Source of the DNA: Octopus vulgaris | Lineage: Eukaryota | NCBI GenBank assembly: GCA_951406725.2 | Contig: OX597823.1 | Span: 7,130,001-7,194,000 of the forward strand | Direction of reading: 5' to 3' | DNA length: 64,000 nt | Shown here: piece after piece, positions 6,941 to 7,360 of the stretch | Position numbering within the stretch: the first letter of the stretch is position 1 | Layout: each line of letters opens with the position of its first letter | Program-made: the position numbers and the translations under genes | The notes under the pieces: generated by a model | What the model was told of the DNA's origin: nothing | Database searches by the model: none | What the model saw: only the letters and a program-made list of their open reading frames with translations

Positions 6941-7360
6941 TTCAACAATTGAGGGTAAAATTAATTAATTATTAATCAATTTCACCAAGTGTTCAGTATG
7001 CAAAGGGACCATTTAAGGCGAATTCAAATTATTACATTATATAAAAGGGCTTAGTAAAATAAATTACTTTGCCGCATACTGAACTCATTAGAAATAGCAG
7101 CTAAAAAACTTTTTTAAAACTATTTCTAATACTTAAAGAAAACCTCTCTCATATAGTGTTTGCTCAACTCAACTCACGAAAGTTTGGGGGTAAAGACATC
7201 AAAAAATCAAATGCAAAGGTTATTTGAGAACGTACGTTTCAAGATTAGTCAACACGACACTTCTATCATCAGCTCAGAAACTCCTTGGTTTGGATTTGAA
7301 AACACTGAAAGTGAGAGCATACCCTTTCGGCTTCTCATCGCTTTCGAAGATCTGCTCGTA
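6941..7360 (-). mobile_element. Hammerhead-bearing non-autonomous insert (PLE terminal-repeat-like) in the SINE (TA)n tract
   Basis: Not present in other SINE copies; contains a hammerhead motif. Confidence 0.7.
7225..7276 (-). ncRNA. Type I hammerhead ribozyme, intact core
   Basis: TGAG-CTGATGA-T AGA..GTC gtgtt GAC..TCT T-GAAA-CGTACG-TT-CTCA; palindromic stem III, GUU site. Confidence 0.8.

Follow-up and report, generated by a model that had tools for sequence, protein, structure and literature searches.

The terminal repeats of Penelope-like elements (PLEs) are reported to bear hammerhead ribozymes, which are usually encountered one at a time, in copies that are truncated (PMC4209133). The consensus layout in supplement 2 of that paper comprises a U-rich 5' flank, the box CUGANGAH, a palindromic helix III, a short helix I and an AU-rich 3' flank. 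The minimal PLE motif of Schistosoma showed no cleavage in vitro as a single unit and weak cleavage as a dimer (PMC4209133), and the hammerhead of an Anolis PLE cleaved only when the element protein was present (PMC11167929). The enzyme of this PLE, the one studied in vitro, was reported to favour AT-rich DNA, to initiate within a stem-loop and to work without hammerhead cleavage (PMC11167929). The Hydra clade is documented in the supplement of PMC8557442, where, as counted by eye, 26 of the 27 families are given as (TA)n inserters, helix III takes the AC...GU form in all 25 tabulated families, and 14 of these 25 have helix II flanked on either side by an unpaired U. Octopus has a family of this clade, Hydra-1_Obim, whose entry in the same supplement records only 4 copies ending at the same site. 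In O. vulgaris, 31 recently active PLE families have been reported (PMC13282606).

A stretch of 64,000 nucleotides, referred to here as the window, was analysed and found to be AT-rich animal DNA with many microsatellites and SINEs. In this window, one SINE is interrupted by a 420-bp insert that carries a hammerhead motif (Table 1). Such nested insertions are ordinary and of a type already known; in this one, what is probably a PLE-type 3' end with a weak hammerhead lies within a SINE. The insert is probably the non-coding 3' end of a PLE, most like those of the Hydra clade, or a non-autonomous derivative of such an element; the ribozyme layout, the (TA)n target, the lack of poly(A) and the bias toward the 3' end together fit a PLE 3' end. 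Because no reverse transcriptase or endonuclease sequence is attached to the insert, the element class and the clade rest on the RNA motif and the target. The first-pass annotation of this DNA had left the element class unnamed; it is most likely Penelope-like.

Table 1. Coordinates of the insert, its host SINE and the features within them (positions in the window)
Feature	Position	Strand	Basis
Left copy of the 23-bp target-site duplication (TSD) of the SINE	6668..6690		exact repeat with 7536-7558
Host SINE, 3' part including the (CA)n(TA)n tract	6691..6940	-	alignment to sister copies
Left ACAT of the 4-bp duplication (or microhomology); insert 3' junction	6937..6940		sister comparison
420-bp non-coding insert, multicopy family, read as PLE 3' end or non-autonomous derivative	6941..7360	-	
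3'-terminal 15-bp hairpin, two G-U pairs forming on the minus strand only	6954..6986	-	fold
Long stem with the 11-bp inverted pair 6991-7001/7074-7084 at its base	6991..7084	-	fold, z -4.17
Second hairpin, 11-bp perfect arms 7087-7097/7120-7130	7087..7130	-	fold, z -3.45
T6 run, strong Pol III terminator just past the ribozyme	7201..7206	-	
Type I hammerhead motif, PLE kind	7225..7276	-	complete core; helix I 4 bp, helix II imperfect, helix III a palindrome
T4 run upstream of the ribozyme; nearest Pol III terminator to the SINE head	7299..7302	-	
Imperfect hairpin near the insert 5' end	7306..7345		z -0.60 minus, -2.14 plus
ACAT, right copy of the 4-bp duplication	7361..7364		sister comparison
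Host SINE, 5' part (tRNA-like head)	7361..7535	-	alignment to sister copies
Right copy of the 23-bp target-site duplication of the SINE	7536..7558		exact repeat with 6668-6690

The host SINE is of the tRNA type and runs on the minus strand from its head at 7535 to 6691. The perfect 23-bp TSD described for it in the first-pass annotation was confirmed and is the longest exact direct repeat around the SINE ends. Both halves of the SINE are collinear with sister copies, and its identity with the closest of these in the window is 93-96%. We take the family to be the dominant tRNA-derived SINE of octopus, and the comparisons with Octopus elements depend on this assignment. The A and B boxes in the head were assigned from the general consensus of such boxes. 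No tRNA gene was found in the SINE head by ARAGORN. In five close sisters (62k, 29.5k, 54.6k, 24.6k and 17.8k), the empty site contains a single ACAT, with the (TA)n run on one side of it and the SINE 5' arm on the other. Because ACAT is single in these sisters and double here, the limits of the insert were placed at 6941-7360. The comparison bears out the earlier description of a SINE split in its (TA)n tract by about 420 bp; the tract is the insertion point at this one site. Together with the nesting, it also supports the claim that the insert is younger than the SINE. The same insert was present in none of the 11 other SINE copies aligned in the 64-kb window, and the only other blastn match of the insert within the window was its own inverted repeat.

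The nesting would be spurious if two repeats had been joined at a microsatellite during assembly. Among the contigs listed for four runs, none spans either junction, as short-read contigs break in repeats. Considering that the two SINE halves are collinear with the sisters, that they share one exact TSD and that the ACAT duplication flanks the insert precisely, an assembly artefact is scarcely credible.

The age of the SINE was judged from contigs of other organisms. Right-flank contigs of runs X4 and X14 (organisms B and D, respectively) reach into the SINE head at 7525-7535, and the right flank in these organisms is about 3% divergent, with 12 (X4) and 11 (X14) differences in 376 bases. An X4 contig also connects the left flank to the SINE tail, minus 25 bases of the TSD region. 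Because contigs of organisms B and D enter the SINE head at this place, the SINE is not very young; its insertion is older than the split from these organisms. The earlier designation of a young SINE with a nested insert holds in making the insert the younger of the two and needs qualifying for the SINE itself. The 25 bases gone from the organism B contig (6672-6696) cover most of the left TSD, and the depth of this contig is five times that of the right flank in the same run, which suggests a deletion or a duplicated flank in the lineage of organism B.

Other repeats were noted in the window. The alignment shows that a sister SINE copy at 31220-31320 is broken by about 80 nt starting with a long A run. 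A 16-bp exact direct repeat (8301-8316 and 8549-8564, 248 bases apart) is probably the TSD of a plus-strand SINE of a second family. A mariner-type transposase fragment lies on the plus strand at 62417-62740 (Pfam Transposase_1, E 1.8e-13); it was the sole identification obtained from nine ORFs of the window that were examined for a host gene or taxon.

The hammerhead motif of the insert lies on the minus strand, which confirms its placement on the SINE strand; in the sense direction it sits 284 nt from the insert 3' end. Its core is complete, with CUGAUGA at 7272-7266 and GAAA at 7240-7237, so that C3-U4-G5-A6-N7-G8-A9, G12-A13-A14-A15.1 and U16.1-H17 are all present. Helix I pairs 7276-7273 with 7228-7225 (4 bp), helix III is an 8-nt palindrome (7237-7230), and the cleavage site is GUU, with a predicted cut after 7229. 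A helix I of 3-5 bp combined with a short palindromic helix III is the PLE variant of the motif, and, except for G10.1-C11.1, the layout, compared by eye with published tables, agrees with the PLE consensus in its U-rich 5' flank, CUGANGAH box, palindromic helix III, short helix I and AU-rich 3' flank. Helix II is not continuous: it consists of 3 bp, a 3x3 internal loop and 3 bp, is opened by an A-U pair with an unpaired U on each side, and lacks the G10.1-C11.1 pair. The motif of the D. willistoni PLE likewise opens helix II with A-U (PMC4209133, supplement 2), and many of the Hydra-clade motifs in the supplement of PMC8557442 also lack G10.1-C11.1.

A descriptor comprising the core, a helix III of at least 3 bp and a helix I of at least 4 bp was applied to the window and to 300 block-wise dinucleotide shuffles of it. 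It matched twice in the real window (7225-7276 and 48582) versus once in the 300 shuffles, and when a palindromic helix III was added, no match was obtained in the 300 shuffles. Rfam gave nothing at gathering score in the 64 kb, and at E up to 10 no hammerhead was among the 11 weak matches in 6600-7700. The free fold of the motif was no better than that of shuffles (z +0.94). The active monomer fold was calculated at only -1.1 kcal/mol, versus -9.8 kcal/mol for the 8-bp self-duplex of helix III between two copies. Because helix III of the monomer has 2 bp, the lone motif would need a second copy or the element protein for cleavage. A single motif of this type should barely cleave. No partner motif was found nearby, the motif at 48582 having a different helix III. 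The hammerhead had been called intact; this is true of the core and overstated for the remainder, given the broken helix II, the missing G10.1-C11.1 pair and the blank Rfam result.

The match at 48582 is part of another type I hammerhead motif, which is unrelated to the first and also lies on the minus strand (48527-48588), with a 6-bp helix I, a G10.1-C11.1 pair, a helix II of 4+5 bp, a 4-bp helix III and an active fold of -6.6 kcal/mol. A (TA)n run follows some 170 nt downstream of this motif, no ORF was seen upstream of it, and no hammerhead was among the 11 Rfam weak matches in 48300-48800. It is probably the 3' end of another PLE family. The hairpin at 7306-7345 was considered as a further hammerhead and ruled out by eye (altered core, no helix I).

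The 3' 190 nt of the insert fold into three successive hairpins (7130-7087, 7084-6991 and 6986-6954). The inverted pair ttcagtatgc/gcatactgaa recognised earlier is real and extends to 11 bp, and a second 11-bp pair, that of 7087-7130, had been absent from the first-pass annotation; two perfect 11-bp inverted pairs were seen in 1 of 2000 shuffles. The hairpin reported at 7306-7345 exists but is weak on the ribozyme strand. For the whole insert, the fold gave z -3.61 on the minus (ribozyme) strand versus -2.51 on the plus strand (60 shuffles each). The minus strand of the insert also has two sequences resembling splice signals, a donor-like GTGAGT and an acceptor-like T6-AG, 77 nt apart (7177-7101), a spacing close to the 75-bp intron of Penelope.

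Several inverted repeats would also be expected of a non-autonomous DNA element (Helitron/Helentron or MITE), in which case the hairpins would form in single-stranded DNA and the hammerhead look would be accidental. Two further observations would suit such an element: if the junctions are shifted within ACAT, the event reads as an A|T insertion that produced no duplication, and the 7306-7345 hairpin, which is near one end, folds better on the plus strand. However, the end hallmarks by which Helitrons, MITEs and solo LTRs are known were not found. The insert ends show neither 5' TC nor 3' CTRR on either strand, no poly(A), no TG..CA ends, and no inverted repeats, whether terminal or subterminal, by which the two ends could pair. 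The absence of the hammerhead pattern from 300 shuffles speaks against an accident, and only on the ribozyme strand can the terminal hairpin make its G-U pairs. A DNA element is accordingly very improbable, and a PLE-type 3' end is preferred.

The insert belongs to a multicopy family. It was present in 20 of the 24 runs listed, from 9 studies and under 4 organism labels, and 18 of these 20 runs hold at least half of its words; the insert-holding runs include very small ones of 36-46 million letters. None of the runs with the insert was listed as RNA, and eight rows whose RNA origin could only be guessed were left aside. The possibility raised earlier that the insert is single-copy is thus not borne out. 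In the four runs examined for depth (X1, X2, X4 and X14, contigs only), the summed contig depth over the insert was 9,000-160,000 times that of the unique flank, a ratio that is not a copy number, and 0.5-8% of that of the SINE. As a rough inference from summed depth, the insert would be present in thousands of copies. Depth over 6961-7113 relative to 7165-7317 was 1.6, 1.7, 2.2 and 5.0 in the four runs. If the hammerhead strand is the sense strand, this fall toward the 5' end fits the polarity expected from 5' truncation; summed contig depth also rises with variant density, and the gradient could have another cause.

At least eight substitution rows fall inside the insert among the rows listed. 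The majority depth in X1 differs from the window at four sites (7143, 7168, 7200 and 7314), and 272 of 390 31-mers avoid those sites, a share close to the word share of 0.65-0.78 in 15 of the 20 insert-holding runs. The window copy therefore differs from the majority of the family by roughly 1% (some 4 sites in 420, judged from the rows listed), which is less than the divergence of the SINE from its sisters. The multicopy status and the low divergence support the earlier claim of a mobile insert family.

Exact patterns of the insert family matched 0 loci in metagenome, viral and prokaryote contigs. A relaxed core pattern matched 95 metagenome loci, none of which matched the insert by blastn; helix I had at least 4 bp in 3 of the 98 relaxed-pattern matches, and helix II had 7 bp in two, at loci L018 and L059. 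These loci show only that the motif type recurs. The motifs at L018 (1373-1428) and L059 (near 201, minus strand) are related hammerheads with the same helix III palindrome and a 4-bp helix I, and L018 has a (TA)n run about 430 nt downstream of the hammerhead. By eye, no upstream ORF recognisable as that of a PLE was present at L018 or L059.

It had been proposed that a transcript from the SINE head could read into the ribozyme. This proposal was weakened. The T4 run at 7302-7299 lies 23 nt before the ribozyme and was brought by the insert; an uninterrupted sister SINE has no T4. In mammalian data, the share of transcripts ended by T4 was 65% for B2 in human cells and about 95% for a tRNA gene, and longer T runs stopped nearly all transcripts (PMC8466645). 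Because T4 stops most transcripts, only a minority from the SINE head would reach the motif; on these values, most Pol III transcripts from the head should end at T4 before the hammerhead.

Read-through is central to the idea that the SINE and the insert form a composite, in which Pol III reads through the hammerhead, the RNA is trimmed and the chimera is amplified or kept for function. The SINE and the motif do have the same orientation, although this is a one-in-two event, and with a leaky T4 5-35% of transcripts could pass, ending at T6 (7206-7201). However, T4 precedes the motif, none of the other aligned SINE copies carries the insert, and the insert depth is a small fraction of the SINE depth. 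Moreover, the single minimal motif did not cleave in vitro (PMC4209133), and that of the Anolis PLE cleaved only with the element protein (PMC11167929). An amplified or functional composite is thus very improbable.

Coding remnants of a PLE were also sought. Hydra-clade PLEs are characterised by a single ORF for a telomerase-like reverse transcriptase with a C-terminal GIY-YIG endonuclease, and further by a partial-tandem pseudo-LTR or a tail of 30-40 bp and by frequent 5' truncation. No ORF was found within the insert. The 84 nt upstream of the motif gave no protein match, the one hit among 1.84 billion representatives being spurious. An open frame ending just before the motif was considered as a PLE C-terminus and rejected, since its sole hit was an algal repeat artefact; by eye it was unlike Hydra C-termini. 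A 68-aa frame on the plus strand gave no candidate protein among near lengths. In two Hydra 3' ends displayed in the supplement of PMC8557442, the distance from stop codon to motif is well above 84 nt, so no coding remnant is expected in the 84 nt available. The distance from the motif to the 3' end of the insert is toward the long side of the Hydra range.

By eye, the 3' end of the insert is unrelated to those of Hydra-1_Obim and Naiad_Obim. A 12-nt word at 7314-7325 (minus strand) recurs exactly within the first 20 nt of the Hydra-1_Obim consensus, and its inner 10-mer occurs once in the supplement of PMC8557442. This match was noticed post hoc and could mark a shared terminal motif. In the literature searched, the insert family was not found described, and PMC8557442 was the only clearly relevant listing; a paper-text search with words of the insert and SINE sequences gave no match. 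The family may already be within the TE library of PMC13282606.

Because animal retrozymes have been proposed to derive from PLE pseudo-LTRs, a retrozyme origin is the sister explanation. The insert would then be an isolated monomer, one unit long, from a tandem non-LTR retrozyme, whose arrays are transcribed and cut by dimeric hammerheads into circular RNAs, a circle of about 420 nt having been re-inserted by a PLE protein. The size is near that of mussel units (350-390 bp) and animal circles (170-400 nt) as given in PMC7229834, the palindromic helix III suits dimeric cleavage, and the insert is strongly self-paired, has no ORF and is of high copy number. Dispersed monomers are described as common (bioRxiv 10.64898/2026.07.22.740005), and the 12-nt word shared by the first 50 nt of the insert and the start of Hydra-1_Obim would fit the retention of both ends, although this match is post hoc. 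On the other hand, depth drops toward one end in all four runs, whereas unit-length monomers would give a flat profile, and helices I and II do not have the canonical sizes of retrozyme hammerheads. No head-to-tail joint was found among the 15 joints listed (2487 others exist, and those near 6880-6947 were left out), which is a weak argument. A retrozyme monomer is thus a possible though unlikely source of the insert, and the truncated PLE 3' end remains the preferred one.

For a PLE 3' end, the following course of events may be proposed. A PLE protein with a GIY-YIG endonuclease and a reverse transcriptase would have nicked the AT-rich tract in a SINE that was already in place, and whose great abundance and (TA)n tract may have made it the target. 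From the structured 3' end of the element RNA, reverse transcription would have proceeded for 420 nt before it ceased, so that the copy retained one hammerhead but no ORF. The lone hammerhead would then be a passenger. A bolder version, which we regard as quite unlikely, is that the insert represents an undescribed, non-autonomous, hairpin-rich Hydra-PLE element with thousands of copies that prefers the (TA)n tracts of the dominant SINE, which would place many SINE promoters ahead of a palindromic hammerhead; the SINE would be both landing pad and promoter for a ribozyme parasite, and leaky Pol III RNAs would pair via helix III and cleave in trans.

With this locus, a cephalopod-type genome gains a PLE-related family that is probably uncatalogued, and the presence or absence of the insert might serve as a marker among closely related species. 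PLE ends with hammerheads in (TA)n have already been described, and nesting in an abundant SINE is expected. The case would matter more if the family used SINEs systematically as target and promoter. If it is indeed a young family of high copy number, covariation and the mapping of RNA ends could be used on it to test the in vivo role of PLE hammerheads.

Among the known systems, the Naiad PLEs of Octopus (Naiad_Obim and Naiad_Ovul) share with the insert the (TA)n target and the animal group; they differ in having no canonical hammerheads (remnants in cephalopods), and the 3' end of Naiad_Obim is different. Animal non-LTR retrozymes resemble the insert as non-coding, self-paired units of a few hundred bases with one type I hammerhead, low GC (33%) and dispersed monomers (PMC7229834; bioRxiv 10.64898/2026.07.22.740005). 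They are, however, defined by tandem units and circular RNA, whereas a single unit in genomic DNA was found here, and their hammerheads are described as mostly canonical. The metazoan PLE hammerheads of Cervera and de la Pena (2014, PMC4209133) have the short helix I, CUGANGAH and palindromic helix III of the insert and, like it, are mostly single motifs in truncated copies that are predicted to need dimers; G10.1-C11.1 is conserved in over 80% of that set, whereas the insert lacks this pair and has a 3x3 internal loop in helix II. From the Hydra-clade PLEs, the insert differs in having no ORF, in its interrupted helix II, in a longer and hairpin-rich stretch after the motif and in an apparently far higher copy number, and from Hydra-1_Obim in particular in its motif and 3'-end sequence. 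With the Hydra-clade PLEs described in PMC8557442 it nevertheless shares the (TA)n target, a type I hammerhead near the 3' end (there downstream of the ORF), a helix III of the AC...GU form with a loop of 1-3 nt, the unpaired U flanking helix II (14 of 25 families) and occurrence in Octopus.
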